From contig JAKLGJ010000001.1 of assembly GCA_022710715.1 (NCBI GenBank), forward strand, positions 362,041 to 426,040: a stretch of 64,000 nucleotides of DNA. Direction: 5' to 3'. Origin of the DNA: Candidatus Omnitrophota bacterium (lineage in GTDB: Bacteria; Omnitrophota; Gorgyraeia; Gygaellales; Profunditerraquicolaceae). Positions 2 through 40,210 of this stretch are shown here, piece after piece. The notes beneath the pieces were generated by a model. The model saw nothing but the letters and a program-made list of their open reading frames with translations, made no database searches and was not told where the DNA came from. Position 1 is the stretch's first letter, and each line of letters opens with the position of its first letter. A program made the position numbers and the translations under genes.

Positions 2-196
2 ATCACGGAATTAGCGGATCGTATCGGCGTCACTCCCAAGACGATTGTGCGCTGGGAGAAGTCCGGGAAGATCGGGCCGTCCAAACGCGACTGGCGAGGA
101 TGGCGGGTATACGAGAAAGACGACTTGAGGAAGCTCAAGCAATTCAAAGAGTCGATCTTTGTCGTGGAAGAAGTGGGGGCCAGACATGAAGCTTAA
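2..196 (+). CDS. 3' fragment of a MerR/excisionase-type HTH DNA-binding protein, cut by the window edge
   Basis: Frame-2 translation ITELADRIGVTPKTIVRWEKSGKIGPSKRDWRGWRVYEKDDLRKLK fits the MerR-type HTH pattern (GV..T.R.WE..G...P.R...G.R.Y...DL..L). Stop TAA at 194-196. Confidence 0.45.
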   Translation: MTELADRIGVTPKTIVRWEKSGKIGPSKRDWRGWRVYEKDDLRKLKQFKESIFVVEEVGARHEA

Positions 197-1082
197 TATA
201 CTGGTTTTCACGATCATGGTTTCCTTAATATGTAGCGCGGCTTTTGCCCAGACGCAGCCGACGGATCAGCCCACAGGAACGCAGTCCGCAGAAACGCAGT
301 CCGCAGAAGCTCAACCGTCTGTTCAGCAGGCTAGCGAGCAACCGCCCGCTACTACGCCCGTTATTACCGGCGATCAGCCCACCACAGCCGCGCCAGAGGC
401 TCCAGTAGCCCCGGCGCAGCTCCCGGCTGTAGTCACCGCCACCACCTCCAGCCATGACGAAGTGCTCTATACCCTCGGCCCGGACGACGTCATCGAGATC
501 ACCGTGCAGCGCCACCCGGAATTCAGCGGCACTTTTCCCATCAACCAGGAAGGCAAGATCCAGTATGAATTCGTGGGAGACTTGCAGGTGACCGGGATGA
601 CCAAGAAACAGCTGGAAGAGAGGCTGCGCCAGTTGATCTCCCGCTATGTGGCTAATCCTGTGGTCAACGTGACCATTACCGATTACCGCTCTAAATTTTA
701 CTTCGTCATCGGCGACGTCGGCCATCCGGGTAAATATTACATGCGCTCCGAGACTACTACCGTGCGCGACGCCATCGTGGAAGCCGGGCTTCCCACGCTT
801 TCCGCGGCGATCCGCAAAGTGCAGTTGATCACTCCGGACAAGAACGGCAGGCCGCGTAAAAAGGCGGTCAATCTGTACGCCATCCTTTACGCCGGCAACC
901 TCAAGCATAACATCGATGTTCGCCCCGGCGATGTGCTTTATATTCCGTCGACAGTGATGGCCAAGGTCTTCCGGACCATCGCTCCGATCACCGAGCCGGT
1001 AACTGCGGCGGCAGAAGCCCAGACCGGCGTAACTTCTTTAAATACCCGTCCGGAGAATCCCCGGCCACGCACAGGTAATTAA
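186..1082 (+). CDS. polysaccharide export outer-membrane protein (Wza/EpsA-like, Poly_export + SLBB)
   Basis: Signal peptide MKLNILVFTIMVSLICSAAFA. Segment YTLGPDDVIEITV...INQEGKIQYEFVGDLQVTGMTKKQLEERL...PVVNVTIT.YRS..YFVIGDV is typical of Poly_export domains. ATG at 186 preferred over the ORF-track start at 159 because of the signal peptide. Confidence 0.85.
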   Translation: MKLNILVFTIMVSLICSAAFAQTQPTDQPTGTQSAETQSAEAQPSVQQASEQPPATTPVITGDQPTTAAPEAPVAPAQLPAVVTATTSSHDEVLYTLGPDDVIEITVQRHPEFSGTFPINQEGKIQYEFVGDLQVTGMTKKQLEERLRQLISRYVANPVVNVTITDYRSKFYFVIGDVGHPGKYYMRSETTTVRDAIVEAGLPTLSAAIRKVQLITPDKNGRPRKKAVNLYAILYAGNLKHNIDVRPGDVLYIPSTVMAKVFRTIAPITEPVTAAAEAQTGVTSLNTRPENPRPRTGN

Positions 1083-1085
1083 TCT

Positions 1086-2396
1086 ATGGAAAACACAACT
1101 CCGAACACCAAATTTCAGAATCCTTTAAGCTATCTCAAGCTGTTCTTCCGCCGCAAATGGTTCTTTATCGCGCCGTTGTTCTTCGGGACAGTGTTTGGCG
1201 TGGTGGCGATGCTGGTTTTGCCGCCCACCTATCAGTCATCGACGGTAATCCTGGTGGAAGAGCAGGGCACGATCAACCCTTTGATCCAGAACCTGGCGGT
1301 AACCACCAGCGTGGCCCAGCGCGTGCAGACCTTGCGCGAGCAGATCTTAAGCTGGAACAATCTCAACGATCTGATCAAGCAGTTGAACCTGGACAAAAGC
1401 GTGGAGAATCCTTTGCAGTTCGAAGGTTTGATCGCGGACCTGCGCAAGCAGATCGTGGTGCAGATGAACGCGCAAAACGTTTTCCAGATCTCATACCGCA
1501 ACCAGGATCCCCAGATCACTTATCAGGTAGTTAAGAATCTTACCGACATCTTCATTCAGGAGAACATGCGTCGGGTGACCAAAGAAACCGACGTAGCCAT
1601 CGACTTCCTGAAAGAACAACTGCAGGTTTACAAGCGCAAAATGAAAGAGTCAGAGATCGCCAATATGGAAGATCAGCTGCGCACGTTGCTGGTCGATTCC
1701 ACCCCGGAACATCCCATGGTGCAGGAATTGCAGCGCAAGATCGACGACGCCAAAAAAGAAATGAATTCCGGCAATTATAAGGTAGAAGAGAAACCGGCCA
1801 GCGCGCAGGTGCGCGAGTTGCTCAAAAATGAATTAAATAAAATTACCCAGGATCAAGCCGCCAGCACTACGAACAGTCCAATGATGGACACGTTGAGTTC
1901 TAACGGCAATGATCAGTCCAATACCGCGCTTTACAAACTGTTTCTGATGGACAGGCTCGACCAATCCATGGCGAGGGATATGCAGGTGAATGAGCGGGTC
2001 TACAACATGCTCCTGGAACGCCTGGAAACGGCCAAGATCACCCAGCGTCTGGAAGCTTCCAAACAGGGCACCCGTTATACTATCGTCGATCCGCCGCGTT
2101 TGCCGTTGCGTCCGGTCAAACCGCCGACTTTAATGCTCATGCTGGGCATTTTTATGGGCGGGGCTTCCGGCGTAGGCCTGGTTTTCGGCCGGGAATTCCT
2201 GGATCAGTCTTTTATCGACATCGACGACGCCAAAGCCAGCCTGAACGGCCCGGTATTGGGAGCGATCTCTCGGATCACCACGCCGGATGAGATCAGACAC
2301 GAACGTCAGGCGCATATCATCTGGATCATGATTTCGCTGGTCCTGGGCAGCGGCCTGGTGGTTACCGCGGTCCTTTATTCATTATTGAGGAAATAA
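1086..2396 (+). CDS. polysaccharide chain-length determinant protein (Wzz/GumC-type, PEP-CTERM-locus EpsF-like)
   Basis: N-terminal TM helix then PPTYQSSTVILVEEQ Wzz motif, a long coiled-coil middle region, and a C-terminal TM helix (LMLMLGIFMGGASGVGLVFG). Confidence 0.8.
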   Translation: MENTTPNTKFQNPLSYLKLFFRRKWFFIAPLFFGTVFGVVAMLVLPPTYQSSTVILVEEQGTINPLIQNLAVTTSVAQRVQTLREQILSWNNLNDLIKQLNLDKSVENPLQFEGLIADLRKQIVVQMNAQNVFQISYRNQDPQITYQVVKNLTDIFIQENMRRVTKETDVAIDFLKEQLQVYKRKMKESEIANMEDQLRTLLVDSTPEHPMVQELQRKIDDAKKEMNSGNYKVEEKPASAQVRELLKNELNKITQDQAASTTNSPMMDTLSSNGNDQSNTALYKLFLMDRLDQSMARDMQVNERVYNMLLERLETAKITQRLEASKQGTRYTIVDPPRLPLRPVKPPTLMLMLGIFMGGASGVGLVFGREFLDQSFIDIDDAKASLNGPVLGAISRITTPDEIRHERQAHIIWIMISLVLGSGLVVTAVLYSLLRK

Positions 2397-3394
2397 TGTA
2401 CGAAAAATTTTACAATTTCAGCGAGAAACCTTTTAATACCACGCCGGACTCCAAGTTCTTTTTCCCGAGTCCCAAGCATACCGAGGCGTTGAACAGCCTG
2501 CTTTACGCGATCAACGAGCGCAAAGGGTTTGTGGTGATAACCGGCGAAATCGGCGCGGGCAAGACCACGGTGATCCGCACCGTGCTCAACAACTTGAGCC
2601 TGAACACCAAAGTGGCGATCATCACCAACACTCATTTGACCAATAAAGAGCTCATCGCCGAAGTCCTGGAAGAATTCGACGTGGAGCATACCGGCGGCAC
2701 CAAGCAGAAACTGCTCTCGCATCTGAATAAATTCCTCATCCAGCAACTGTCCGCGGATATGAACCTGGTATTGATCATCGATGAGGCGCAGAATTTAAGC
2801 ACCAAGGTCATGGAAGAAGTGCGCATGCTCTCCAACCTGGAGACGGAAAAAGAAAAGCTGATCCAGATCATCATGGTCGGCCAGCCGCAGCTCAAAGCAA
2901 AATTAGATAATCCCAAACTGGAGCAATTCAAACAGCGTATTTCGGTATTTTATCACCTGGCGCCGTTGAGCAGGAAAGAAACCGAGGAATATATCGTACA
3001 CCGCTTAAGCAAAGTCAGCACTAACGGCTATTCCGAGATCTTCACGTCCGAAGCCATCAAGTACGTCTTCGCTTATTCTAAAGGCGTGCCGCGCCTGATC
3101 AATCTGCTCTGCGACAGTTGTTTGCTCTCCGGATATGTCTATGAACGCAAACAGATCACCGGCGACATCGTCAGAGAAGTGATCAAAGAACGCGATTTCA
3201 ACTCGATCCCGGCTGAATCGTCGGAGGAGAGAGAAGGCGGCGCGCATAAAACTTATTGCTGCACTGCCTGCCAGCAATACAACAATTGCCCCTTGAAATG
3301 GATCCGGGGCACCCGGAATCAGGAGCAGCTTTGCTGCGATTCCTGCCAGGATTATTTACACTGCATGGTGAACAAGCCAGCATCGAAAGGTTAA
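2396..3394 (+). CDS. ExeA-like AAA ATPase of exosortase/EPS loci (TIGR03015-like) with a Cys-rich C-terminal tail
   Basis: Walker A GEIGAGKTT and Walker B LIIDEAQNL. taATG start overlaps the upstream stop. The tail carries a duplicated CCxxCQxYxxC motif. Confidence 0.75.
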   Translation: MYEKFYNFSEKPFNTTPDSKFFFPSPKHTEALNSLLYAINERKGFVVITGEIGAGKTTVIRTVLNNLSLNTKVAIITNTHLTNKELIAEVLEEFDVEHTGGTKQKLLSHLNKFLIQQLSADMNLVLIIDEAQNLSTKVMEEVRMLSNLETEKEKLIQIIMVGQPQLKAKLDNPKLEQFKQRISVFYHLAPLSRKETEEYIVHRLSKVSTNGYSEIFTSEAIKYVFAYSKGVPRLINLLCDSCLLSGYVYERKQITGDIVREVIKERDFNSIPAESSEEREGGAHKTYCCTACQQYNNCPLKWIRGTRNQEQLCCDSCQDYLHCMVNKPASKG

Positions 3395-3400
3395 ACTCTC

Positions 3401-4192
3401 ATGGGAAAAATTACCGACGCTTTGAAGAAAGCCACTGAAGAACGCATGACCCGTCTGGAAAAGCTCGATTCCCGGGACGAGGTCAAATACCAGTTTATCG
3501 CCCAGAAGACCGTCGATTCCAAGATCGACCCGCGCATCGTGGCGTTTTATGAGCCGGCCTCGCCGGTTGCCGAGCAATACCGCATACTGCGCACCAATAT
3601 TCTGGCTCTGGGCACCAACAAAATACTCAAAACCGTGGCCGTGACCAGCTCGATCCACAGCGAAGGTAAGACCATTTCCTGTATTAACTTCGCTATCTCC
3701 ATGGCCCAGGATTTGAACAAAAAGAAGATTTTATTGATCGACGCGGATATGCGCCGCGGCCGGATAAAGAGTTATTTAGGGATCAATACCGAACTGGGAT
3801 TATCCGATCTTCTGGCGGATAAAACCACCACCGAAGAGGAATTCATCAGTATCGGCGGTATTGAAAACCTCACGGTGCTGCCCTGCGGCAAATACCCGAA
3901 TAACCCGGCGGAACTTCTGGGCTCGATGAAATTTCGCAATCTTTTAAGCTTATTGAAGGAACGCTACGATTTTATCATCATCGATTGCCCGCCGATCATC
4001 CCGGTCACCGACGCTAATATCATCGGTCCTTTGACCGACGGCGTGGTCATGGCGGTGCAGGCAGGCAGAACTCAACGCGGGGTAGTCAAAAACAGCGAAG
4101 CCATCTTGAAACAGGCAAATACCAAGCTCCTGGGATACATCATTACCAACGTGCAATACCATATCCCGGCTTATATCTATCGTTACTTGTAA
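3401..4192 (+). CDS. BY-family protein tyrosine autokinase (EpsG/CpsD-like)
   Basis: Walker A SSIHSEGKT, Walker A' LLIDADMRRGR and Walker B DFIIIDCPP. C-terminal tyrosine cluster YHIPAYIYRYL. Confidence 0.8.
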   Translation: MGKITDALKKATEERMTRLEKLDSRDEVKYQFIAQKTVDSKIDPRIVAFYEPASPVAEQYRILRTNILALGTNKILKTVAVTSSIHSEGKTISCINFAISMAQDLNKKKILLIDADMRRGRIKSYLGINTELGLSDLLADKTTTEEEFISIGGIENLTVLPCGKYPNNPAELLGSMKFRNLLSLLKERYDFIIIDCPPIIPVTDANIIGPLTDGVVMAVQAGRTQRGVVKNSEAILKQANTKLLGYIITNVQYHIPAYIYRYL

Positions 4193-4200
4193 GGAGAACT

Positions 4201-5583
4201 ATGAAGACATTGATCAGAAACAGGCAGAAATTATTCGGCACCGACGGCATCCGCGGCACGCCCGGCGTCTATCCGTTGACCGACGACATGCTCGCGGTGA
4301 TCGCCCAGGCAGTGGCCCAGAAGATCATCTCTGAAAACGGCGCTACCCGTAAGAAACACCGCGTGGTCATCGGTAAAGATACCCGTTTAAGCGGCGACAA
4401 CATCGAAGGCATACTGGCGGACAGCATCCGCGCTTTCGGGGTGGACGTGCTGATCATCGGCACGATCACTACTCCCGGGCTTTCTTTCTTCGCCACCGAC
4501 CTTAAAGCCGACGTGGGGATCATGATCTCCGCGTCCCACAATAAAGCTACTGACAACGGGATCAAATTTTTCAATGGCCGCGGCCATAAATTCAGCCAGA
4601 CAGAAGAAGAGGCGGTCGAGGATATAATCTTCGAGGATCTGGTGACCAAACCGCATCCCAGGGCAAAGATTAAGGGTAAACTGATCAAAGTCAAAGACGC
4701 CCAGTCCCGCTACGGGAAATTCCTGGCTTCAACGGTCAAAGGCCTTGATCTGACCGGCTATAAAGTGGCTTTGGATTGCGCCTGGGGCGCAGCAGCTCCT
4801 TTTGCCAAGAAGATTTTTACTGACCTGGGGGCCAAAGTCGAAGCTATACACGACAAGCCTTCGGGAGATAAAGTCAATGAAGGCGGCGCTATCCATCCGG
4901 AACTGCTCAAGAAACTGGTCCTGGAGACGAAAGCGGATATCGGCGTGGCGGTGGACGGCGACGGCGACCGGGGCATCCTGGTGGATGAAACCGGCACGAT
5001 CGTAGACGGAGACTGTACCATCGCCATCGTGGCCCGTTACTTAAAGAAGAAAAATTGCCTGCGGGCGAATACCGTGGTCGGCACAGTGATGAGCAATCTG
5101 GGATTGAAAGTTTCCCTGGCCGAAGAAGGGATCAAGATCCTTTGCACCAATGTCGGCGACAAATACGTCCTGGAATCACTGCTGAAGAATAACCTGACCC
5201 TGGGCGGCGAACAGTCCGGCCACATCATTTTCCTGGACCATCTTTCCACGCCCGACGGATTGCTGACGGCATTGCAGATGCTGCGGGTGATGAAAGAAAA
5301 AGATATGTCTTTGAGTAAGCTATGCAAATGCATGACCAAATTTCCCCAGATACTGGTTAATGTGAAGGTTAAAGAACGCAAGCCTTTCGAAGAAATGCCC
5401 AAAGTGCATACCAAACTGCAGGATTATAACAGCCGGCTCAAAGAAGACGGCCGGATACTCCTGCGTTATTCCGGCACGGAACTGCTGGCCCGGGTAATGG
5501 TGGAAGGCAGGGACAGATCCGAGATCGAGACTATCGCCAATACTCTGGCCTCGGAGATCCGTCAGGAAATAGGAGCCGAATAA
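4201..5583 (+). CDS. glmM: phosphoglucosamine mutase
   Basis: GTDGIRG motif, active-site SASHNKATDNGIKFF, VDGDGDR metal site and GEQSGH sugar-binding loop. RBS AAGGAGA lies 5 nt upstream. Confidence 0.85.
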   Translation: MKTLIRNRQKLFGTDGIRGTPGVYPLTDDMLAVIAQAVAQKIISENGATRKKHRVVIGKDTRLSGDNIEGILADSIRAFGVDVLIIGTITTPGLSFFATDLKADVGIMISASHNKATDNGIKFFNGRGHKFSQTEEEAVEDIIFEDLVTKPHPRAKIKGKLIKVKDAQSRYGKFLASTVKGLDLTGYKVALDCAWGAAAPFAKKIFTDLGAKVEAIHDKPSGDKVNEGGAIHPELLKKLVLETKADIGVAVDGDGDRGILVDETGTIVDGDCTIAIVARYLKKKNCLRANTVVGTVMSNLGLKVSLAEEGIKILCTNVGDKYVLESLLKNNLTLGGEQSGHIIFLDHLSTPDGLLTALQMLRVMKEKDMSLSKLCKCMTKFPQILVNVKVKERKPFEEMPKVHTKLQDYNSRLKEDGRILLRYSGTELLARVMVEGRDRSEIETIANTLASEIRQEIGAE

Positions 5584-6177
5584 ATGACGAATAAACTTAA
5601 AGCAATCGCGGAATTGAGCAAACGGGACGAAGATCGTTTCAAACGGCTGTATGAACTTATCGCCAAAGGCGTGGATATCGTCGATCCTTTTACCACTTTT
5701 ATCGCCGAGGGCGTAAAAATAGGCAAAGGGACTACAATTTATCCTCTGACGGTGATCGAAGAAGATGTAATCATCGGCAAGAACTGCAAGATCGGGCCGT
5801 TCGCGCGCATCCGGCCGCATGTCCGGCTCAAAGATGAAGTGGTAGTGGGCAATTTTGTGGAAGTCAACCGCTCGACCATGGAAAAAGGCGCCAAAGCCAA
5901 ACATCTGACGTATCTGGGCGACACTACCGTCGGAGAAAAAGCCAATATCGGCGCCGGGACCATCGTGGCCAATTACGACGGCAAAGAAAAGCATAAGACT
6001 CTGGTCAAAAAAGGCGCATTCATCGGCAGTGGATCGATCTTAGTCGCTCCGGTAACGGTAGGCAGGAATGCCATGACCGGAGCCGGCGCAGTGGTTACCC
6101 GTAATCATAATGTTCCGGACAACTGTGTGGTGGTAGGAATTCCAGCCCGCGTATTCAAAAAAGGAGAGAAGAAATAA
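5584..6177 (+). CDS. hexapeptide-repeat acetyltransferase matching the C-terminal domain of GlmU only
   Basis: Aligns along its whole length to the E. coli GlmU C-terminal domain (NFVE..K...GKG.KA.HLTYLGD..IG...NIGAGTI..NYDG..K.KT.....FIGS...LVAPVT.G......AG..VTRN). No nucleotidyltransferase domain is present. Confidence 0.75.
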
Positions 6178-7481
6178 TGAACACCTACGAGCAACTCAAA
6201 TCCAAGATCAAAGATAAATCCGCGCAAGTTTGTATCGTCGGATTAGGTTATGTCGGCCTGCCTCTGGCAGTGGAATTTGCCAAAAAAGGCTATTTTGTCT
6301 ACGGTTACGACACTGATCCGCACCGCATCGAGAAACTGCGCACCGGCGAGAAATTCATCGTGGACGTGGATCCTAAAGAAGTCCTGGAATTGATGAAGAA
6401 CAACCGCTTCGTTCCGACCACAGACGACACGGTGATCAAAGATTCCGACGCGATCATCATCGCCGTGCCTACGCCGCTGCGTAAGGTCAAATTCCCGGAT
6501 GTTTCCTATGTGGTCAGCGCTTCTACTACCGTGAAAAAGAACATGCGCAAGGGGCAGTTGATCATCCTGGAAAGCACTTCTTATACTACGACTACCCGTA
6601 ATGTCACCCTTCCCATCCTGAAGAAATCCGGACTCAAGGAAGAACGCGATTTCTTCCTTTGTTTTTCTCCGGAGCGGGTCAATCCCGGGGATAAGAAATT
6701 CCCGGTGATCAAGATACCCAAAGCAGTGGGAGGGATGTCCGAACAGTCCACGGAATTAGCTTTCATGCTTTATTCGGTGATCATGGAAAAAGTATTCAAA
6801 GTTTCCAGCCCGGAAGTAGCGGAAACCTCGAAACTTCTGGAAAATACCTTTCGCCTGGTGAACATCGCTTTGATCAGCGAATTCGCCATCCTGTGCAATA
6901 AGCTGGGGATCAGCATCTGGGAAGTCATCGAATGCGCCAAGACCAAGCCCTTCGGGTTCATGCCGTTCTATCCCGGCCCGGGCATCGGCGGCCATTGCAT
7001 TCCCTGCGATCCGGTATTCCTTTCCTGGAAGGCTAAGAAGCTGGGCTACAAGACCAAAATGATCGATCTGGCATTGGAGATGAACCGCTACATGCCTAAA
7101 TATACGGTAGAGAGAGTCGTGGAGCTTCTGGCGTCGAAAAAGAAGCCGATCGAAAAAGCCAATATTCTGATCCTGGGCGTAACCTATAAGAAAGACGTCA
7201 AAGATCTGCGTGAATCTCCGGCTCTGGAGATCATCGAGCATTTCAAGCATAAAGCAGCCAAGGTCAGCTTCCACGATTCAATGATCCCTTACATCAAGAT
7301 CGACGGGATCAATATGGAAGGTACAGCCATTACGCCGGCGAACTTGAAGAAGTTCGACTGCGTGGTGCTGATCACCGACCACTCGGATGTGGATTACAGC
7401 TTCATCCAGAAGCACGCCAGACTCATCTTTGACGCGCGCAACGTGTATAAGGAAAAACACAGCAACGTAGTTAAACTTTAG
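6177..7481 (+). CDS. nucleotide-sugar dehydrogenase (UDP-GlcNAc/UDP-ManNAc 6-dehydrogenase, WbpA/TviB/WecC-like)
   Basis: N-terminal Rossmann motif VCIVGLGYVGLPLA and catalytic GGHCIPCDP. Length of 434 aa is typical for the family. Confidence 0.85.
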   Translation: MNTYEQLKSKIKDKSAQVCIVGLGYVGLPLAVEFAKKGYFVYGYDTDPHRIEKLRTGEKFIVDVDPKEVLELMKNNRFVPTTDDTVIKDSDAIIIAVPTPLRKVKFPDVSYVVSASTTVKKNMRKGQLIILESTSYTTTTRNVTLPILKKSGLKEERDFFLCFSPERVNPGDKKFPVIKIPKAVGGMSEQSTELAFMLYSVIMEKVFKVSSPEVAETSKLLENTFRLVNIALISEFAILCNKLGISIWEVIECAKTKPFGFMPFYPGPGIGGHCIPCDPVFLSWKAKKLGYKTKMIDLALEMNRYMPKYTVERVVELLASKKKPIEKANILILGVTYKKDVKDLRESPALEIIEHFKHKAAKVSFHDSMIPYIKIDGINMEGTAITPANLKKFDCVVLITDHSDVDYSFIQKHARLIFDARNVYKEKHSNVVKL

Positions 7482-7516
7482 TCATTGCGAGCCCCGAAGG
7501 GGCGAAGCAATCTTAA
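7481..7516. repeat. 36-bp palindromic repeat element, copy 1 (intergenic)
   Basis: gtcattgcgagccccgaaggggcgaagcaatcttaa is identical to 8240-8275. It contains the hairpin gcccc-gaa-ggggc flanked by ttgc/gcaa. Confidence 0.8.
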
Positions 7517-7530
7517 TAAAAGGAGTTCAC

Positions 7531-8532
7531 ATGCGTTTTCTCGTCACCGGCGGCGCCGGTTTCATCGGTTCCCATATCACCGACAAATTACTTAAAGACG
7601 GCCATTTTGTGCGCGTCCTGGATAATTTTTCTTCGGGTAAAGAAGAGAATCTGGAGTATGCTAAAGGCTACCCGGCCAACTTCGAGTTGATGCGCGGCGA
7701 CATCTGCGACAAGAATACCTGTTTGCAGGCGACTAAAGGCGTGGATGCGGTCTGCCATCAGGCGGCTTTGCGCAGCGTGCCTAAATCCATGACCATCCCG
7801 CACGAATATAATCGCGTGAATATCGACGGCACTCTGAATTTGCTCGAAGCCTGCCGCGAGAATAAGATCAAGCGTTTAGCTATGGCCTCATCCAGCTCGG
7901 TGTACGGCGATGTAACAAAATTCCCGGAAAAAGAAACCTTTTATCCGGAGCTGATCTCGCCTTATGCTTTGAGCAAATTGACTGACGAATACTATTGCCG
8001 CATCTTCTCCGAACATTTCGGGGTAGAAACGGTTTGCCTGCGCTATTTTAACGTATTCGGCCCGCGTCAGGCCCTGGATGACGAATATGCCGTGGTCATC
8101 CCAAAGTTCATTCACTGCGTGTTGAATGATCAGCAGCCGCCGATATTTGGCACCGGCAAGCAGTCCCGCGATTTCACCTATATCGACAACGTGGTCCAGG
8201 CGAATTACTTGTCTTTGACCAAAGATCTGTCTCTTTCCCGTCATTGCGAGCCCCGAAGGGGCGAAGCAATCTTAAAGGGGAAGGTCTTTCATGGCGTTTT
8301 CAACGTCGCCAACGGAAAAGATACTACAGTACTGCAGATTGTAGTCCTGTTGAACAAGATACTGGGAAAGAACATTCAGCCGAACTTCCTGCCGGTTCGC
8401 GCAGGAGACGTATTCCGCACCAATGCGGATATATCCAAGATAAAGAAAGCCCTGGGTTTCAAGCCCCAGGTTGGTTTCGAAGAAGGATTACGCAAGACAG
8501 TGGAGTGGTTTAAAGCTAAGTGGAATAAGTAA
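7531..8532 (+). CDS. NAD-dependent nucleotide-sugar epimerase/dehydratase (WbpP/TviC-like) carrying an in-frame repeat insertion
   Basis: LVTGGAGFIGSH Rossmann motif and YALSK catalytic Y..K. RBS AAGGAG is present. Residues SRHCEPRRGEAIL are encoded by the 36-bp repeat. Confidence 0.8.
   Translation: MRFLVTGGAGFIGSHITDKLLKDGHFVRVLDNFSSGKEENLEYAKGYPANFELMRGDICDKNTCLQATKGVDAVCHQAALRSVPKSMTIPHEYNRVNIDGTLNLLEACRENKIKRLAMASSSSVYGDVTKFPEKETFYPELISPYALSKLTDEYYCRIFSEHFGVETVCLRYFNVFGPRQALDDEYAVVIPKFIHCVLNDQQPPIFGTGKQSRDFTYIDNVVQANYLSLTKDLSLSRHCEPRRGEAILKGKVFHGVFNVANGKDTTVLQIVVLLNKILGKNIQPNFLPVRAGDVFRTNADISKIKKALGFKPQVGFEEGLRKTVEWFKAKWNK
8240..8275. repeat. 36-bp palindromic repeat element, copy 2 (in-frame inside the epimerase CDS)
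   Basis: Identical to 7481-7516. Its 36 bp preserve the reading frame of the epimerase. Confidence 0.8.
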
Positions 8533-8585
8533 AAATAATAACAATGCAGGGGTCAGATTAGCAGGAGGAGAAGGGAACATGCCCG

Positions 8586-8909
8586 ATGAAATCATCTTTT
8601 ACTCTAAGCAGATTATTGCCCCTGTTTATTCTTTTATTGATACTTCCGGGCTGTAAGCTCGGCGGCGGAGGTGGTGGCGGCGGCAGTTCTGCAGCCGGCA
8701 GTCCCGGCGCCGGGATCATCAGCGATATGCAGATGGTCAGCACGCAAGAGCTGACGACACAAAACGACAACCTGACACTTACCGAGAACTTCACCAATCA
8801 GTCTGCGCCGATCAACACCGCAGTCATTCCTGAACCGGCAACCATGGGGTTGCTGTTAGGCGGCGCAGCTTTGATTTTCATCAAAAATAATCGAGCGAAG
8901 GAGCAATAA
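8586..8909 (+). CDS. small lipoprotein with a C-terminal PEP-CTERM sorting signal
   Basis: Lipobox LILPGC followed by a G8 run. C-terminus VIPEPATMGLLLGGAALIFIKNNRAKEQ is PEP plus TM helix plus basic tail. An alternative ATG at 8579 is better placed to the AGGAGG RBS but gives only a featureless 25-aa ORF. Confidence 0.7.
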   Translation: MKSSFTLSRLLPLFILLLILPGCKLGGGGGGGGSSAAGSPGAGIISDMQMVSTQELTTQNDNLTLTENFTNQSAPINTAVIPEPATMGLLLGGAALIFIKNNRAKEQ

Positions 8910-8910
8910 A

Positions 8911-9189
8911 ATGGATCAGGCAAATCAACTAAGTGAAGCAGAGATCAAAGCAAAGATCAGAGGTTTTATCAAAGACAATTTCCTCCTGGGCAATGACGCT
9001 AAACTCCAGGATACGGATTCTTTGATGGAAAAGGGTATTGTGGATTCCACCGGTATCCTGGAAGTAGTCACCTTTGTGGAAGAGAACTTCGGCTTCAAAG
9101 TCGCAGACGAAGAGCTCCTGCCGGAGAATCTGGATTCGTTGAATCAACTCACGGCATATATACAGAAAAAGACGGTTGGAGGGGCGTAA
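8911..9189 (+). CDS. acyl carrier protein
   Basis: 92 aa, acidic, with phosphopantetheine-site DS motif (GIVDSTGILEVV). RBS GAAGGAG is present. Confidence 0.8.
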   Translation: MDQANQLSEAEIKAKIRGFIKDNFLLGNDAKLQDTDSLMEKGIVDSTGILEVVTFVEENFGFKVADEELLPENLDSLNQLTAYIQKKTVGGA

Positions 9190-9192
9190 GCA

Positions 9193-10272
9193 ATGATTAT
9201 GAATAATCCTTTAATTAGCATTATAGTTCCGACCTACAACGAAGCTCAAAATATTAACGAGTTGTTGAATCGTGTCCACGCTGCTTTAAATGGGATTGAG
9301 CATGAAATCATCGTTGTCGATGATGATTCACCGGATAAAACCTGGGAGATAGCAGAGAACAGAAGTAAAGCTGATTCATGGGTGCGGGTTATCAGACGTA
9401 AAGATCGTGGTTTAAGCAAAGCGGTGGTAGCGGGCTTTAATGAAGCTAAAGGAGAATTGTTAGGGGTTATTGACGCGGATTTGCAGCATGATGAACGTAT
9501 TTTGCCGGAAATGATAAAGAAAATCGAAGTAGCGCCTATAGTAGTCGGCTCCCGGTATGTGGAAGGCGGCGGAGTAGGCGATTGGAAGCTCGATCGGAAG
9601 ATCAAAAGCTGGTTAGCCACTAAAGTGGCTGCATTGATCTTGAATGTTTCAGTTAACGACCCGATGGCCGGTTTCTTTATCGTTAAGAAAGATGTTTACC
9701 AGAGAGTAAAAGAAAAAGTTAATCCACAAGGGTTTAAAATCCTGCTGGAGATTCTTTATCACGCTAACGTTGCTGTTGCCGAAGTTCCTTATCAGTTCAG
9801 GACCCGTCTGGCAGGAGAGAGTAAACTGTCTTCCAAGGTAGTTATTGAGTATTTTAAGCAAGTAATCCGGTTAAGAAGCACTAATCCGGTACCGGAAGGG
9901 CTTATTAAATATTCTATAGTGGGCGGCTCTGGTGTACTGGTTGATATGTTAGCTTTCGGCATCAGTTCGCATTTCCTAAAGATTCCGGTCGCCTTCTCTG
10001 GGATCATATCAAGTCAAGTTGCTATCTTTACAAATTTTATTCTCAATGATGTTTGGACTTTTGAAAGCCAGCGAGAGCAACCTTTATACGTGCGGTTTGC
10101 TAAATATGAGGCTACTTGCTTTATTGGGATCATCATTAAGTTTTTTGTTATACTTCTCACCGTAAATATATTTAGATTTAATCCTTATTTAGCGAATGGG
10201 ATAGGAATCATTCTTGTGGTCTTTAGCAACTTTATTTTTAGCAAATTATGGGTATGGAAAACACAAAAATAA
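9193..10272 (+). CDS. GT2 polyprenyl-phosphate glycosyltransferase (DPM1/ArnC-like) fused to a GtrA-like membrane domain
   Basis: ISIIVPTYNEAQNI...VVDDDSPDKT GT2 signature and DAD motif. C-terminal four-TM GtrA-like segment (IKYSIVGGSGVLVDMLAFG...). Confidence 0.8.
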   Translation: MIMNNPLISIIVPTYNEAQNINELLNRVHAALNGIEHEIIVVDDDSPDKTWEIAENRSKADSWVRVIRRKDRGLSKAVVAGFNEAKGELLGVIDADLQHDERILPEMIKKIEVAPIVVGSRYVEGGGVGDWKLDRKIKSWLATKVAALILNVSVNDPMAGFFIVKKDVYQRVKEKVNPQGFKILLEILYHANVAVAEVPYQFRTRLAGESKLSSKVVIEYFKQVIRLRSTNPVPEGLIKYSIVGGSGVLVDMLAFGISSHFLKIPVAFSGIISSQVAIFTNFILNDVWTFESQREQPLYVRFAKYEATCFIGIIIKFFVILLTVNIFRFNPYLANGIGIILVVFSNFIFSKLWVWKTQK

Positions 10273-11795
10273 ATACTACACAACTAAAAAAACACCATTC
10301 CGCCTGGCTCCTGGCGGCGATTCTTTTGCTTGCTCTTGGCATTAGGCTTGGAACTATGAATAATCATGGTGTTTGGATTGATGAAACCTGGGTAGTCACT
10401 ACTCCCAACTTTCATCTTGATTCAAAAGATATATTCCCTAAGTTTTTTGAGTATCCGCAAGTAAAAGAGCTTGCCGAATCAAAACAAGCATTGTTGAAGA
10501 AAGTATATAATATTCATCCGGTGGTACAAATATGTTTTATGCTTATCTCCGATATGCATCCGCCGTTTTACTATATAGTTTCGTACTTTTGGACTCGTCA
10601 TTTTGGCGAATCGTTATTTGCAATACGTGCATTGCCTTTATTATTCGGTTTGCTTACCATTGTATGTACTTACCTTATAGCTAAATCGCTCTTTGGGAAG
10701 AAAGTTGCTTTAATCGCAGCTTTATTTCTGGCTGTCTCACCTATGCACGTGCATTTCTCCCAAATGGCCAGAAATTTTTCCCTGATGACGTTCTTAGTAA
10801 CATTCAGTTATCTTGTTTTGCTGACTAAGCTTTTCAAAAGATTCGAACTCAAGTATGCCATTCTTTATGGCATTAGTGGATTTCTCGCTTTGCTTACCCA
10901 CTATTACTCGGTATTTTTTATCTTTACGCAGATAATCATGATAATTTTATGGGAGATCAAGGGCAAGAAGCGCTTCTTAAGATGGTTCGTAATTTTTCTT
11001 CTGATTGCGCTATTTTATACTCCTTGGCTGCCGGCCGTATATATCCAGATGTTTTTACGTAATCCTACGACTCAAAGTCAGCTGACTTCCACCAACTTGA
11101 ACACTGTTTTATCACAAATGTATGCCGTAGGTTTTATACCCTCGGTTACAACTAAATTCTTTTCTGGCGCTGTGGTAAATTTTCTAAAGATAATAAATTT
11201 GGTTGTAATCGTTTTTTTAGTTTTCTGTGGGGGTAATAAACTTAAAGCTCATGATCGTATGGCTTTTCGCTGGATATTGGTATGGTGCGGTATGCCGATT
11301 TTTTTACTTTCATGTCTTTCGTTGTTGAAACCTCTCTATTCAATCAAAAGTTTATTGCCGATTTTACCTGCTTTTTTTATTCTCTATGCGTTCGTACTCG
11401 CAAGGCTAAAAAACAAAGTTTTACTTAGTTTTATCTTGGTTTGTTTGTCCAGTATTATGTTGATTTCCCAGCTTGTCTGGCCCACTTATCCCGGGATTGA
11501 ATCGACAGAAGATACGAGAGGGGCAGTTGCACAGTTAAAAAGTTCAATAAGCTCTGAAGATATCGTAGCGGTTCAGCCGGGATTTTACAGGGACGGTTTA
11601 TGGTATTATTTACCAAGAGATTGTATGCTTTTAGACGAAGATCAAACTATTTTAATCCCGAGAGATAAAAATATTTGGTTATTCCGTTTTTGGGATAGGA
11701 ATAAATCAATACCTGAGATTGAACATGCTAATCCTGATTCAACTTATAAGTTTTTCGGAGTTTCTGCCTATTTATGGAAAAAGAGTTCCTTATGA
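10248..11795 (+). CDS. GT-C fold glycosyltransferase (ArnT/PMT-like, GT39/GT83)
   Basis: Multi-TM protein with a PMT_2/ArnT-like N-terminal region (IDETW, HPPFYYIVSYFW). Overlaps the preceding GT2 gene. Confidence 0.7.
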   Translation: MGMENTKINTTQLKKHHSAWLLAAILLLALGIRLGTMNNHGVWIDETWVVTTPNFHLDSKDIFPKFFEYPQVKELAESKQALLKKVYNIHPVVQICFMLISDMHPPFYYIVSYFWTRHFGESLFAIRALPLLFGLLTIVCTYLIAKSLFGKKVALIAALFLAVSPMHVHFSQMARNFSLMTFLVTFSYLVLLTKLFKRFELKYAILYGISGFLALLTHYYSVFFIFTQIIMIILWEIKGKKRFLRWFVIFLLIALFYTPWLPAVYIQMFLRNPTTQSQLTSTNLNTVLSQMYAVGFIPSVTTKFFSGAVVNFLKIINLVVIVFLVFCGGNKLKAHDRMAFRWILVWCGMPIFLLSCLSLLKPLYSIKSLLPILPAFFILYAFVLARLKNKVLLSFILVCLSSIMLISQLVWPTYPGIESTEDTRGAVAQLKSSISSEDIVAVQPGFYRDGLWYYLPRDCMLLDEDQTILIPRDKNIWLFRFWDRNKSIPEIEHANPDSTYKFFGVSAYLWKKSSL

Positions 11796-13246
11796 CACTG
11801 AAAGATATACTCTCAAATAGCGCAAGGAAATATTCTGACAACCAGGCAGTGATTTATCAGAAAGAACGTCTTTCCTATGCCGAATTGGAATCGCTTTCCG
11901 ACTTTATGGCTTGCCAGTTACTGGATAGAGGAGTTAGAAAAGCGGATAGAGTAGGGTTACTCCTGGAGAATTCGCCTTTATACGTGATCGCATTTTTCTC
12001 TGTGCTTAAAGCCGGGGCAGTAGTAGTTCCGATCAACACTCAACTGGTAACCCGGGAATTGGAAAGTATCATTTCGGATTGCCAACCGTCGATGATCATT
12101 ACGGATGACAGCCATAAACAATCCCTGGATACTTTCAAGGATATATCGATTTTCTCGGTAAGTTCCATCCGCTATACGCCTGTCGCCAGCCTGCAGTCTA
12201 TTCCGGCTAAGGAATCCGATCCGGCAATGATCATTTATACTTCCGGGACTACCGGTAAGCCCAAAGGCGTGATGCTTTCCCATCGTAACTTGGTAGCCAA
12301 TGCCGAGTCTATTGTTGATTACTTAAAACTATCTTCATCCGATTCGATGATGGTTATTTTGCCTTTTTATTATTCCTACGGTAATTCATTGCTTACCACC
12401 CATATCATGGTCGGTGCGACGTTAGTCATAGATAACCGTTTTGTTTTCCCTAACGTTGTTCTGGAAACCATGGAAAAAGAGAAAGTAACCGGGTTTGCTG
12501 GCGTCCCGTCTCATTACGCCATACTTTTGCGCAAATCAGCTTTACGCAATTATAAACTAACCAGCTTGCGTTATGTGACTCAAGCCGGGGGTGGAATGCC
12601 GGCTTCGATGATCAAGGAATTTACCGAAGTTGTGCCGCATGCGCAGTTTTTTGTGATGTATGGACAGACTGAAGCCACTGCCCGGTTGACCTATCTTGCG
12701 CCGGAGCATCTACGATCAAAATTAGGATCTATCGGTAAAGCTATTCCGGGAGTTGAGCTGGATGTGTTGAATGAGCAGGGCCAGCCGGTTCAGAATGGTG
12801 AAGTAGGCGAGATTGTGGCTCGCGGTAATAATATCATGCTAGGGTATTGGAATGCTGCTGAAGAAACCGGGAAAGTTAAGAGAAAAGAAGGCCTCTGGAC
12901 CGGGGATATGGCCAAAGTCGATAGCGATGGTTTTATCTATCTTATCAGCCGCAAGAAAGAGATGATCAAAAGCGGCGCCAATCGCATCAGCCCGTTGGAG
13001 ATCGAGGATGTAGTAAGCCGTTTGCCTGGCGTAGTAGAATGCGCGGCTGTAGGCGTTCCGGATGAGATTTTGGGTGAATCGATCAAGCTTTGCGTGGTTA
13101 AAAATGGAGTTCCCTTAACCAATAACGATATTCTCCTGCATTGCAAACAGCATTTAGCTCCCTTTAAGATGCCTAAAGAAGTGGCATTTGTGGCGTCTTT
13201 ACCCAAGACCAGTACAGGTAAGATCAAACGAAGCGAGTTAAAATGA
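11792..13246 (+). CDS. AMP-dependent acyl-CoA/acyl-ACP ligase (exosortase-locus ligase-like)
   Basis: AMP-binding motif IIYTSGTTGKPKGVMLSHRN, YGQTE and a C-terminal lysine motif. ATGA overlap with the upstream stop favours start 11792 over 11774. Confidence 0.85.
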   Translation: MTLKDILSNSARKYSDNQAVIYQKERLSYAELESLSDFMACQLLDRGVRKADRVGLLLENSPLYVIAFFSVLKAGAVVVPINTQLVTRELESIISDCQPSMIITDDSHKQSLDTFKDISIFSVSSIRYTPVASLQSIPAKESDPAMIIYTSGTTGKPKGVMLSHRNLVANAESIVDYLKLSSSDSMMVILPFYYSYGNSLLTTHIMVGATLVIDNRFVFPNVVLETMEKEKVTGFAGVPSHYAILLRKSALRNYKLTSLRYVTQAGGGMPASMIKEFTEVVPHAQFFVMYGQTEATARLTYLAPEHLRSKLGSIGKAIPGVELDVLNEQGQPVQNGEVGEIVARGNNIMLGYWNAAEETGKVKRKEGLWTGDMAKVDSDGFIYLISRKKEMIKSGANRISPLEIEDVVSRLPGVVECAAVGVPDEILGESIKLCVVKNGVPLTNNDILLHCKQHLAPFKMPKEVAFVASLPKTSTGKIKRSELK

Positions 13247-23601: not shown

Positions 23602-24849
23602 ATGCTTTTTTTCTGTCTTCTTCTTTTTATAGTCATTACATATATTCAACCGCAGGATTTTATTCCAATCGTCAAGGGCTTGCCCATTGTATATTTTCTT
23701 TTAATGTTCCTCGGTATACTTTGGTCTTTTCGATTATTAACAAAAGGAGATTTAAAGTTAGGAAAAGCACCACAAAATATCCTTATGTTTTTATTCTGGA
23801 TAGCTATTACTCTTTCAACCCTTAAGGTCGCTTGGTTTCCGTATACTCTTGAGATATTTTTAGAATGGTCTAAAGTAATAATAATTTATTGTTTTGTTGT
23901 TACTATAGTTAATTCGGAAGAAAAATTAATAGCGACTAATTGGGCAATCGTTCTTTCAATATTAATAACGGCTTGGTTGGGGATTTTGCAAAACTTTGGA
24001 TTGGATTTTACTGGTTTGGGAACTCATCTAGCAGGCCGGATTAGAGGTGTGGGGATTTTTGGAACCAACCAGTTGGCTTACGCCATGTGTTTTACTCTTC
24101 CTTTGGTCTTTTATTTATTTAGAATAACTCCCAAAATACTTCCCAGAATTTTGCTTATCCTAACAGCTATCTCTTTGGGCTACTGCACTTTTCTTACACA
24201 ATCCAGGGGTGGATTGCTATGTTTTTCGATAGTGATTTTACTCACTTTTATCTCATTTACGAAGAAAAAAAGAATTAAATTATTAGGAATTGTTTTAAGT
24301 ATCGCTATATTCATTCTCCTAATAAAATTCGCTCCGCGGTTCTCAAGCACTTTTGAATATCAGGAAGATGCGTCTGCAGTCAATAGGTTGAATGCTTGGG
24401 CTGATGGGTTAAGTATGGCCAAGGAAAATCCATTATTTGGAATTGGGAAGAATCAATTTGTTGAGACTTTTAAAATAGCCGCACATAATTCATTTATTGA
24501 GACATTAACTGAAGTGGGATTTGTCGGTTTATTTATCTGGTTAGGACTTTTCTCCCTTACGCTAAGGAATTTACGTGCAATATTTAAAAATGATACTAAT
24601 AATTCAACCGCAATGAGGATTTACAGCAAGTATCTTTCAATAAGCTTTTATGCTTATCTGATTGGTTCTTATTTTTCTGCGAGTTCTTATTATATTCCTC
24701 TTTATATCTTGTTTGCATTGAGTGTTATTCTTCAGAATTTATTATACCGTGAAGAATTAAGTTATATTCGTTGGAAGGATTTAGGCAACATTGCTTTTAT
24801 TGAAATTGGAGTGTTAATCTTCATTCATTTAGTAGCGAGGTTTTCTTAG
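23602..24849 (+). CDS. O-antigen ligase / Wzy-like polymerase family membrane protein
   Basis: About 10-12 TM helices and a periplasmic loop containing AAHNSFIETLTEVGFVGL (Wzy_C-like). Confidence 0.75.
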   Translation: MLFFCLLLFIVITYIQPQDFIPIVKGLPIVYFLLMFLGILWSFRLLTKGDLKLGKAPQNILMFLFWIAITLSTLKVAWFPYTLEIFLEWSKVIIIYCFVVTIVNSEEKLIATNWAIVLSILITAWLGILQNFGLDFTGLGTHLAGRIRGVGIFGTNQLAYAMCFTLPLVFYLFRITPKILPRILLILTAISLGYCTFLTQSRGGLLCFSIVILLTFISFTKKKRIKLLGIVLSIAIFILLIKFAPRFSSTFEYQEDASAVNRLNAWADGLSMAKENPLFGIGKNQFVETFKIAAHNSFIETLTEVGFVGLFIWLGLFSLTLRNLRAIFKNDTNNSTAMRIYSKYLSISFYAYLIGSYFSASSYYIPLYILFALSVILQNLLYREELSYIRWKDLGNIAFIEIGVLIFIHLVARFS

Positions 24850-38674: not shown

Positions 38675-40210
38675 ATGGTCAATATTTTTAAAGAAAAACA
38701 GAATAAAATAACTTTCTTTGTTTTTATCTCGTTGCTTTTCATTTCCTTGATCCCACTTTTTGCTACGAAAGTATTACCTCTTTACGACTATCCGAATCAT
38801 ATGGTTCGGTTGCATATAATACATAATATCAATACTAATCCTGTTTTAGGCCAATTTTATACTGTGAATTGGCAATTATTGCCTAATCTTGCTTTTGATA
38901 TAATAGGTTTGTTTTTTACTATGATATTCGGCGCAGACACTGCTGGTCGAATTTTTGTCGGTCTTATATTTATCATTATATCTACGGGAACGGTTGCTTT
39001 ACACTATGCGTTGTATAAGAAAGTGTCGCCATGGATATTAATTGTATTCCTTTTTCTCTACAATGAAGTCTTGCTTGTGGCAAATTTGTCTTATTTATTT
39101 AGCGTTGGCTTTTTCTTGTGGGTGACCGCTTTATGGATTATATTCCGTAAACAAAAAACTTGGGTGAATATCGCAGTTTTTTCAACAATAACATTTCTGC
39201 TCTTTATCAGTCATTTGTATGGTTTTTGTCTTTATGGTCTAGTTGTGGTTGGATATGAACTCAAACAGCATCAAAATGCTAAAAAATCGTTCTTCAGGCC
39301 TTCGAAATATCTTATTTTATCAATTGCGCAGTTTGTTCCTTCATTATTGCTTTATTTCTTTGTAAGCCCTACATCTACTTCAGCAGGGTCGCATAGAATT
39401 GGTTTTGCAAGCTTGATTGAAAAAGTAATAAGCTGGTCATATATCATTGATTTCTATCATCCACCTCTTCAATTAGTCGTGGCGTGTTTACTACTCTTGG
39501 GTGGAGCATATTTAATCTGGCGACGAGATATTGTATTCGCTAAAGACATGTTGTTTTCTGCTATTATTCTTTTCGTGGCATTTTTGTTTGCCCCAACAGG
39601 AATTATCGGTACTTATTTTGTATCGCAGCGATTGCCTGTAGCTATAACCTTTTTTCTTATCGCATGTATTTCTATTCCACATTTTAATACCCGCTTTCGT
39701 AGGATAATCCCTTTTGCGATAAGTTTGCTTGTTATAATCCATACGGGATTTATATATTCCAAATGGCAATCTTTTCAGCCTATTTATGAAGATTTTTTTA
39801 ATGCGATGAATAAGGTTGAACGGGCCTCGACAATTATAACGGTAATTGCGAATAATGGTTCGTGGCATAAAACTTTAGAACCGTCATTGTTATATGCGAG
39901 CTGTTTTTCAGTTATTGAAAAACCAATTTTTGTTTCATCGCTATTTGTTTATAAAACGCAGCAGCCTCTTAACGTTAAACCTGCTTACGAATCTCTTGTG
40001 GTTGATGGAATTATTTTCACAGAAGGGACGCTTAAACAAGTGCAACAAGAAGGTGCTCGAAGTTCAAGAAATCCTTTGCAAAACGATTTACTTATGAAAT
40101 ATGATTATGTTCTTATTGTCAATGAAGAGTTTTTTCCTTTTCCTATATCGGATAATTTTGAAAGAAAATATGCATCTGAAAAAATAAAGTTGTATCAAAA
40201 AAAGAAATAA
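38675..40210 (+). CDS. hypothetical polytopic membrane protein (possibly GT-C-like); not exosortase-like
   Basis: RBS GGAAGGAGA. About 12 TM helices in the N-terminal 380 aa, then a soluble C-terminal domain. Confidence 0.55.
   Translation: MVNIFKEKQNKITFFVFISLLFISLIPLFATKVLPLYDYPNHMVRLHIIHNINTNPVLGQFYTVNWQLLPNLAFDIIGLFFTMIFGADTAGRIFVGLIFIIISTGTVALHYALYKKVSPWILIVFLFLYNEVLLVANLSYLFSVGFFLWVTALWIIFRKQKTWVNIAVFSTITFLLFISHLYGFCLYGLVVVGYELKQHQNAKKSFFRPSKYLILSIAQFVPSLLLYFFVSPTSTSAGSHRIGFASLIEKVISWSYIIDFYHPPLQLVVACLLLLGGAYLIWRRDIVFAKDMLFSAIILFVAFLFAPTGIIGTYFVSQRLPVAITFFLIACISIPHFNTRFRRIIPFAISLLVIIHTGFIYSKWQSFQPIYEDFFNAMNKVERASTIITVIANNGSWHKTLEPSLLYASCFSVIEKPIFVSSLFVYKTQQPLNVKPAYESLVVDGIIFTEGTLKQVQQEGARSSRNPLQNDLLMKYDYVLIVNEEFFPFPISDNFERKYASEKIKLYQKKK

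Follow-up and report, generated by a model that had tools for sequence, protein, structure and literature searches.

The described proteins closest to the one reported here are the substrates of exosortases (TIGR02595, PF07589), which carry a PEP motif, a transmembrane (TM) segment and a basic cluster at the C-terminus and an export signal at the N-terminus; they include the floc-forming protein PepA of Zoogloea resiniphila and hormogonium proteins of Nostoc punctiforme (PMC1569441, PMC12188702). Such proteins have no homology outside the tail, have low-complexity bodies rich in Ser, Thr and Asn, and are encoded in exopolysaccharide (EPS) loci (PMC1569441, PMC12188702). The Ser/Thr/Asn enrichment suggests glycosylation, and one proposal is that the exosortase hands the protein over to an unknown nucleophile (PMC1569441). 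The acceptor is suspected to be exopolysaccharide or another envelope molecule (PMC1569441, PMC12188702), and the model of exosortase transfer is still hypothetical (PMC1569441 Fig. 4; PMC12188702; 10.1101/2023.06.07.544157). Twenty years after PEP-CTERM was described the attachment partner is unsettled, and the 2025 literature gives it as 'possibly' EPS, the outer membrane or both. All of these substrate features recur in a 107-amino-acid (aa) protein encoded at 8586-8909 on the + strand of a 64,000-nucleotide stretch of a Candidatus Omnitrophota bacterium (assembly GCA_022710715.1, contig JAKLGJ010000001.1, positions 362,041 to 426,040), hereafter the window.

The reading that we favour, with moderate confidence, is that the gene product is a minimal surface protein of the PEP-CTERM class whose signal peptide is of the lipoprotein type. 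An original prediction made from the sequence had described a small PEP-CTERM lipoprotein embedded in an EPS locus and had proposed a role as a tether or glycosylation substrate; the observation is confirmed and the interpretation partly supported. The protein represents a new subfamily in which a signal of the signal peptidase II (SPII) type and a PEP-CTERM tail flank a tiny disordered body, a combination that is unusual though not unprecedented in principle. The papers searched contained nothing relevant to the pairing of a lipobox with PEP-CTERM in a single protein, nor to exosortases of Omnitrophota.

The gene and its product

The gene and its parts, with the evidence for each in brackets, are:

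8533-8585 (+): intergenic leader with the GGAGGAG/GAAGGG ribosome-binding region (conservation in the related locus L024)
8586-8909 (+): gene for the PEP-CTERM mini-protein, 107 aa, NCBI HOW42765.1 (open reading frame (ORF), substitution pattern, JGI and NCBI gene calls, TIGR02595)
8586-8654 (+): N-terminal signal with n-region K2 and R9, h-region L10-L20 and L20-P21-G22-C23 (sequence, hydropathy, AlphaFold (AF2), homologues)
8661-8684 (+): Gly8, G26-G33, preceded by K-L after Cys23 (sequence)
8685-8825 (+): acidic Ser/Thr/Asn/Gly-rich spacer, residues 34-80, 47 residues (composition, sequons, AF2, conservation)
8826-8909 (+): PEP-CTERM sorting domain including the stop codon at 8907-8909 (hidden Markov model (HMM) residues 81-103, AF2 helix 84-102, invariant residues)

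The substitution pattern indicates that 8586-8909 is a real gene under purifying selection. Comparison with the 78%-identical homologue in locus L019 yields 21 synonymous and 23 non-synonymous codon changes, with 18, 6 and 28 differences at the three codon positions; for the L020 homologue the numbers are 19 synonymous and 11 non-synonymous. The small protein diverges faster than its neighbours (epimerase 93%, acyl carrier protein (ACP) 83.5%). The 38 nt before the start codon, including GGAGGAG, are 100% identical in L024, where the protein is just 78% identical.

No sigma-70-type promoter was found on the + strand before the gene, and terminator-like matches around it are at chance level; since it has no promoter or terminator of its own beyond chance and the ACP start lies 1 nt from its stop codon, we place it within a long operon of genes that all run in the same direction. 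The window, L020, L024 and L027 all keep an out-of-frame ATG that precedes the start codon by 7 nt. Upstream of the small gene, the window (8547-8565) and L027 (about 345-362) have in common a GGGTCAGA...GC element, which in L027 reads CTGGGTCAGAGCCTGC and has the sigma-54 pattern TGG-N9-TGC. Sigma-54 promoters are known for PEP-CTERM genes of Proteobacteria. As a candidate, a sigma-54 promoter of the gene's own is weak, as the window has just GG-N10-GC and the pattern is near chance level there.

LPGC is encoded at 8643-8654, with the Cys23 codon at 8652-8654. At the other end P82-E83-P84 (8829-8837) is followed by the TM helix A85-I99 (8838-8882) and the basic residues K100, R103 and K105 (cluster at 8883-8900), and the protein ends at residue 107. 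Hydropathy shows one N-terminal hydrophobic segment (residues 5-23) and a polar middle with no TM segment between signal and tail. AlphaFold with a four-sequence alignment gives helices at residues 7-19 (signal) and 84-102 (tail) alone, while residues 24-79 have a predicted local distance difference test (pLDDT) score below 50 and no secondary structure. Because the model contains just these two terminal helices, it indicates that the mature part is a flexible spacer with no folded domain. The spacer has N-x-S/T sequons at N62, N68 and N71; these are plain sequons, and none of the PglB type (D/E-x-N-x-S/T) occurs in the 107-aa protein.

The PEP-CTERM tail

The canonical PEP-CTERM tail of the original prediction is borne out by the NCBIfam model TIGR02595, which the protein passes with 20.6 bits against a cutoff of 16 (E 5e-4); the score with Pfam PF07589 is a little under threshold (19.1 vs 20.7). 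All five members of the family described below exceed the TIGR02595 cutoff of 16 (20.6, 19.8, 19.9, 32.5 and 20.1 bits), and no named PEP-CTERM subfamily model was matched above cutoff by the 107-aa protein. HOW42765.1, which is the exact protein, already carries the NCBI name 'PEP-CTERM sorting domain-containing protein', so this half of the finding is already annotated. Conservation of the tail-defining residues argues for an enzyme that recognises them.

Homologues found by sequence and by gene neighbourhood

A direct homology search of 5.8 billion proteins with the 107-aa protein found just 3 relatives, at 72-100% identity. LPGC, the Gly run, LTENFTNQSAP and VIPEPAT are retained in each of these close relatives, as is the epimerase-X-ACP gene order; synteny holds in L019, L020 and L024. 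Since the EPS export core is conserved across Omnitrophota and everything downstream of it varies, we walked gene neighbourhoods seeded with the ACP, and through these alone recovered two divergent positional homologues with 30-36% identity. The walk also led to L024 (ACP 85%), in which the same small gene is present. In L027 (ACP 79%) a 96-aa ORF between epimerase and ACP, MRVLLTMLLAVAVTQLSGCKSGGGGGGSG...PVPEPSTLALLGIGLSGLLLRRRSK, is 30% identical to the window protein and has an LSGC lipobox, K-x-Gly6, a Ser/Thr/Asn-rich middle and a PEP-CTERM tail (32.5 bits). In L026 (ACP 69%) an 80-aa ORF that follows the epimerase and a hairpin has Gly9 and a PEP-CTERM tail (20.1 bits); it is N-terminally truncated, the frame being closed 18 nt upstream. 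Fast-evolving mini-proteins of this sort are missed by sequence search and recovered by neighbourhood walking.

Invariant in all five members are the Gly run, P82, E83, P84, T86, L89, L90 and G93, and apart from the Gly run (6-9 residues) no internal feature is invariant in all of them. The whole architecture of signal and Cys, Gly run, disordered acidic Ser/Thr/Asn-rich spacer, and PEP with TM segment and basic cluster is the same in the 30%-identical lineage.

The L026 hairpin, at 7172-7206 between the epimerase and the 80-aa ORF, is a perfect 14-bp stem (CCGTTCGGGACGGT-ACATTGC-ACCGTCCCGAACGG). The region that follows (L026 7241-9417) looks rearranged, with the 80-aa ORF, a Fic-domain gene, an NTP-transferase gene and a VanZ-like gene preceding the ACP.

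The N-terminal signal

In an SPII signal the lipobox [LVI][ASTVI][GAS]C, its Cys within about 15-35 residues, stands behind an n-region with positive charge and an h-region that is hydrophobic; the n-region, the h-region and the position of Cys23 fit, whereas LPGC departs from the pattern by its Pro at -2. Among the close homologues neither Cys23 nor Lys24 varies, and LPGC-K-x-Gly8 of the window protein aligns with the canonical LSGC-K-x-Gly6 of the L027 homologue. Read from the sequence, no small-x-small (AxA-type) site for signal peptidase I (SPI) follows the h-region. SPII processing appears to be the best reading of the N-terminal signal, because the 30%-identical L027 protein has a canonical lipobox with the Cys-Lys-x-polyGly stretch aligned and there is no SPI site. 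The OPX exporter of the related locus L025 bears a canonical LAAC lipobox, which argues that lipoprotein processing is in use in the phylum; lgt and lspA, as well as genes for Lnt and Lol, are not in the window.

Search for an exosortase

No window ORF of at least 100 aa matched any of more than 20 exosortase and archaeosortase models, in a scan of + strand ORFs against NCBIfam and of the unmatched ones against Pfam and, leniently, against NCBIfam again. PF09721 genes are also absent from the 10-kb flanks on either side. A verified XrtA seed from L018, a genuine proteobacterial locus, found nothing by tblastn and phmmer in six frames of the window, the flanks and seven related loci. As a positive control the L018 XrtA scores 280 bits against a cutoff of 208 (TIGR03109); it lies ∼2.5 kb downstream of the ATPase gene. 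A protein database search seeded with XrtA had only alphaproteobacterial XrtA among the matches listed.

The only unassigned polytopic ORF of the window, 38675-40210, was rejected as an exosortase: its family conserves no Cys, and hhalign gives its profile a probability of 0.1% against that of XrtA. With this candidate set aside, the model scans and the six-frame search uphold the earlier observation that no exosortase is encoded in the 64 kb. The ORF (+ strand, 511 aa) has ∼11 TM segments, a C-terminal soluble part and no Pfam or NCBIfam match. Its family comprises 3,222 cluster representatives at E≤1e-3 and 488 at 1e-30, with a conserved 'PPLxDYPNHLAR' motif in the first loop and the invariant residues P27, D38, H180, P307 and W364; none of 35 family members has a Pfam match, and the single-sequence AF2 model is poor (pLDDT 45). 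The ORF may represent a family of GT-C-like glycosyltransferases or polymerases of EPS loci that has no name as yet.

Exosortases are likewise absent from 13 related Omnitrophota loci (L009-L015, L025, L026, L028-L031), which suggests that having the exosortase unlinked is a trait of the phylum and not something particular to the window. Omnitrophota EPS loci thus have many XrtA-system-like genes and are consistently without a linked exosortase.

In another Omnitrophota metagenome-assembled genome, L009 4958-7115 (− strand) encodes three tandem canonical PEP-CTERM proteins of 230-241 aa (TIGR02595, 25.7-27.8 bits). They have AHA/ASA-type SPI signals and lie immediately upstream of the same core of MerR, exporter, chain-length determinant, ATPase and kinase genes, with no exosortase within 10 kb.

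Proposed mechanism

If the protein is a PEP-CTERM surface protein with a lipoprotein-type signal, the precursor would be exported by Sec, Cys23 would be diacylglyceryl-modified and the signal would be cut by SPII. Should the E. coli sorting rule hold here, the Lys at +2 would promote passage on to the outer membrane. The C-terminal helix would keep the other end in the inner membrane with PEP facing the periplasm, until an exosortase encoded elsewhere in the genome cleaved at PEP and moved the new C-terminus to an acceptor. The spacer would probably be glycosylated, possibly by the O-ligase-like enzyme of the locus (23602-24849), and the product would be a lipid-anchored glycopeptide of ∼60 residues with its C-terminus joined to the EPS of the locus or to another envelope molecule. 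A role as a tether or glycosylation substrate, which we infer from such features, is compatible with the disordered Ser/Thr/Asn-rich spacer, the PglL/O-antigen-ligase-like gene and the model of the field (PMC12188702, PMC1569441).

A more specific form of this mechanism is a natural minimal 'EPS tether', a disordered glycopeptide of ∼60 residues with its Cys in the outer membrane and its C-terminus covalently on the exopolysaccharide made by the same operon. We regard it as speculative and rather unlikely, and the proposal that Omnitrophota process PEP-CTERM tails without a canonical, EPS-linked exosortase is less likely again. If true, the tether would be the smallest defined exosortase substrate and its C-terminal adduct, accessible to mass spectrometry, would reveal the long-sought transfer acceptor, giving a concrete model of how a cell retains its capsule or EPS. 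An unstructured substrate of ∼60 residues, if its far end is already held in a membrane, would be especially convenient for probing what the acceptor is. The immediate impact is modest because the protein is already annotated as PEP-CTERM and the organism is uncultivated.

Weighing of alternative explanations

Several observations weigh against a PEP-CTERM surface protein with a lipoprotein-type signal. Taken alone, the lipoprotein call on the window protein is shaky, because LPGC, with Pro at -2, fails the PROSITE (PS51257), G+LPP and DOLOP lipobox patterns, and the L026 homologue is without a signal peptide and without the Cys. The two terminal signals of the original prediction stand as conserved elements (homologues at 72-90% identity keep LPGC, the Gly run and VIPEPAT, and L027 has LSGC), whereas the lipobox of the window protein itself falls outside the accepted patterns. 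The 84 kb of window and flanks contain this one PEP-CTERM protein and no exosortase, and the 13 related loci have no exosortase either; PEP-CTERM proteins number a median of 8 per genome and singletons are treated as suspect (Haft 2006, PMC1569441). In L025, L028, L030 and L031 (ACP 66-73%) the small gene is absent and the ACP-ligase-NAD-synthase module is kept, with an NTP-transferase gene preceding the ACP. Absence from these four sister loci and evolution faster than that of its neighbours mark the gene as dispensable, and points against a strictly essential dual-anchor design are L026, which lacks the N-terminal half, the gene-less loci and the SPI-type signals of L009.

Some of these points would suit an ordinary secreted PEP-CTERM protein, with one C-terminal sorting signal and an unlipidated Cys, from which SPI removes the signal or in which the signal acts alone. 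PEP-CTERM proteins have been described with ordinary signal peptides (Haft 2006, PMC1569441), the L009 trio has AHA/ASA-type SPI sites, and both the failure of LPGC in the three pattern sets and the Cys-less L026 homologue fit. This explanation is unlikely given the invariant Cys23 and Lys24, the textbook L-S-G-C aligned in L027 at 30% identity and followed by the same K-x-polyGly, and the lack of a small-x-small site after the h-region. The gene could also be an orphan or in decay in a genome without a cognate exosortase, its product pinned in the inner membrane at both ends or being lost. Chlorobium tepidum offers a precedent, with two PEP-CTERM proteins and no EpsH (Haft 2006, PMC1569441), and the patchy presence of the gene, the truncated L026 copy behind its hairpin, the faster divergence, the status as sole PEP-CTERM protein in 84 kb and the missing exosortase there and in the sampled related loci agree with it. 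We nevertheless think it quite doubtful: the synonymous-rich substitutions speak of purifying selection, the invariance of PEP and tail residues across 30% identity would be difficult to account for if no enzyme recognised them, canonical PEP-CTERM proteins adjoin the same EPS core in L009, and the operon itself includes ten XrtA-system-like genes. A role as dedicated partner of the ACP/acyl-CoA-ligase module, in which the peptide or its glycan is acylated by the module and PEP-CTERM and lipobox serve delivery only, would account for the stop codon 1 nt from the ACP start (a 23-nt overlap in L027), for the adjacency of small gene and ACP(-ligase) in every locus with an intact small gene, and for the 'exosortase A system-associated' families among the best hits of ligase and hydrolases. 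It is improbable, however, as three other genes intervene in L026, ACP and ligase are cytoplasmic while the mature peptide would be periplasmic or at the surface, and the ACP-ligase-NAD-synthase module exists without the small gene in L025, L028, L030 and L031, so that dependence is at most one way. That 8586-8909 is a chance ORF, the real feature being an antisense ORF or non-coding spacer DNA, is effectively refuted; the sequence is short and of low complexity and faces an antisense 79-aa ORF at 8558-8797, but its substitutions are third-position-biased in the + frame, the Gly run changes length in frame, the HMM is passed by five members from three lineages, and the gene is co-directional and tightly packed in an operon with a conserved ribosome-binding region.

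The surrounding EPS locus

The same locus is found in JGI Ga0116241_10000002 (a 1.62-Mb contig of JGI 3300010429, in which the window occupies positions 777,452-841,451), GCA_035453765.1 and GCA_035390565.1. Its main features in the window are:

186-4192 (+): EPS export core of OPX exporter (186-1082), chain-length determinant, PEP-CTERM-system-type ATPase and bacterial tyrosine (BY) kinase (best hits TIGR03027, TIGR03007, TIGR03015, TIGR03018)
4201-8532: nucleotide-sugar genes
8911-9189 (+): ACP gene, separated by 1 nt from the end of the small gene (ACP family hits)
9193-11795 (+): pair of a GT2-GtrA polyprenyl-phosphate glycosyltransferase (9193) and a PMT_2 GT-C glycosyltransferase (10248) (Pfam, NCBIfam hits)
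11774-13246 (+): acyl-CoA ligase (NF004837, long-chain-fatty-acid--CoA ligase subfamily, top with 430 bits; TIGR03098 second, 406 vs a cutoff of 592)
23602-24849 (+): membrane protein like Wzy_C and 'putative O-glycosylation ligase, exosortase A system-associated' (TIGR03097 122.8, cutoff 188; Wzy_C 81.6 bits)

The family hits at 4201-8532, 8911, 9193 and 10248 agree with the earlier placement of the gene between nucleotide-sugar genes and ACP/GT2/GT-C genes. The identification of 186-4192 as an exosortase-type EPS core holds in part: the best hits of the four proteins are all to XrtA-system families, but each falls slightly short of the curated cutoff (for the ATPase, TIGR03015 311.7 vs 324.5). 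The order MerR, exporter, chain-length determinant, ATPase and kinase is conserved in the Omnitrophota loci L009-L015, L025, L026 and L030. Further along the operon are hydrolases 2 and 1 (TIGR03101/03100-like), an stp2 glycosyltransferase, an XrtA-system amidotransferase (626.8 bits vs a cutoff of 816.9) and a deacetylase. By these profile matches the locus is XrtA-like in ten components (TIGR03027, 03007, 03015, 03018, 03098, 03100, 03101, 03097, 03108 and 03088), all best or near-best hits and each below its curated cutoff.

The ACP is the most constant neighbour of the small gene, the two being adjacent in L019, L020, L024 and L027, and they are probably translationally coupled. The GT2-GtrA/PMT_2 pair is a lineage-specific insertion between ACP and ligase that is absent there in L025-L028, L030 and L031. 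This weakens the tie that had been drawn between the small protein and the pair, as well as PMT_2 GT-C as a dedicated spacer glycosyltransferase: in L027 and these other loci the ligase follows the ACP directly, and the PMT_2 relatives at 78% identity are found in unrelated contexts, next to an aminotransferase or to a transposase. A candidate enzyme for glycosylating the spacer would be the PglL/O-antigen-ligase-like product of 23602-24849, which has a weak TfpM match too.

Across Omnitrophota loci (L001 6832-8425; also L010, L012, L013 and L030) three conserved genes directly precede the EPS core. One encodes a ParA-like ATPase joined to an AMPK1/CBM48 carbohydrate-binding module, the second a Lys-rich protein of ∼150 aa that resembles histone H1, and the third a 66-aa helix-turn-helix protein of the MerR type. 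Small genes for bAvd/23S_rRNA_IVP four-helix bundles, an AbiEii toxin gene and a transposase are inserted in otherwise syntenic Omnitrophota EPS loci (L025 2727-3110; L028 1613-1966 and 5515-6324; L022 5664-6920), which appear to be hot spots for the insertion of mobile and defence genes. The L010 and L013 contigs, labelled 'Candidatus Babeliales' and 'uncultured Planctomycetales', share the full gene order with the Omnitrophota loci at 67-73% ATPase identity and are probably mis-binned or mis-classified.

Large proteins downstream in the window

The proteins encoded at 40375-42180 (+, 601 aa) and 42380-52045 (+, 3,221 aa) are 90% identical over their first 480 residues, and the first ∼140 residues and ∼100 nt upstream are identical. 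Both end in CFI-box-CTERM (NF041770) after poly-Gly (G7-S-CFIA and G11-CFIA). The pair suggests a recent duplication in which the middle was exchanged. In this organism, poly-Gly beside terminal anchor motifs is a recurring feature. The gene at 52718-62026 (+), just downstream of the EPS locus, encodes an RHS protein of 3,102 aa that has PKD/YD repeats, an RHS-associated core and, at the C-terminus, a distinct tip; the protein is probably a polymorphic toxin. Its gene adjoins type II secretion system/pilus-like genes in the flank (L006).

Comparison with known systems

Set beside the known PEP-CTERM substrates, the window protein is much smaller (∼60 residues predicted after processing) and has no folded domain; its signal ends in a lipobox-type Cys and not in an SPI site, and its locus has no linked exosortase. 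The locus resembles the proteobacterial XrtA-type (type 1) system in the best or near-best hits of exporter, chain-length determinant, ATPase, BY-kinase, acyl-CoA ligase and hydrolases 1 and 2, and also of the O-ligase-like protein, amidotransferase, stp2 glycosyltransferase and deacetylase. It differs from that system in that its proteins all score below the curated equivalog cutoffs and that XrtA, EpsI, PrsK/R/T, the FemAB-like protein and the TIGR03016 outer-membrane protein are missing from the 84 kb covered here.

LPXTG/sortase, PGF-CTERM/archaeosortase A, GlyGly-CTERM/rhombosortase and the type IX secretion system C-terminal domain (CTD) with PorU likewise use a three-part signal at the C-terminus, which is taken off in favour of a covalent link to a polymer or lipid of the cell surface (PMC7468200; 10.1101/2023.06.07.544157). 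The motif and the enzyme family are different in each of those systems. None of them is known to be combined with a lipobox at the N-terminus of a spacer of 60 residues.

The Braun lipoprotein of E. coli, Lpp, is a tether between the outer membrane and peptidoglycan, a 58-residue mature lipoprotein with a lipid anchor on its N-terminal Cys and its C-terminus covalently on an envelope polymer. Lpp is a helical trimer, and L,D-transpeptidases join its C-terminal Lys to peptidoglycan, whereas the window protein has a disordered body and a PEP-CTERM signal at the C-terminus. The two have no sequence relationship, and their likeness would be one of functional logic only.

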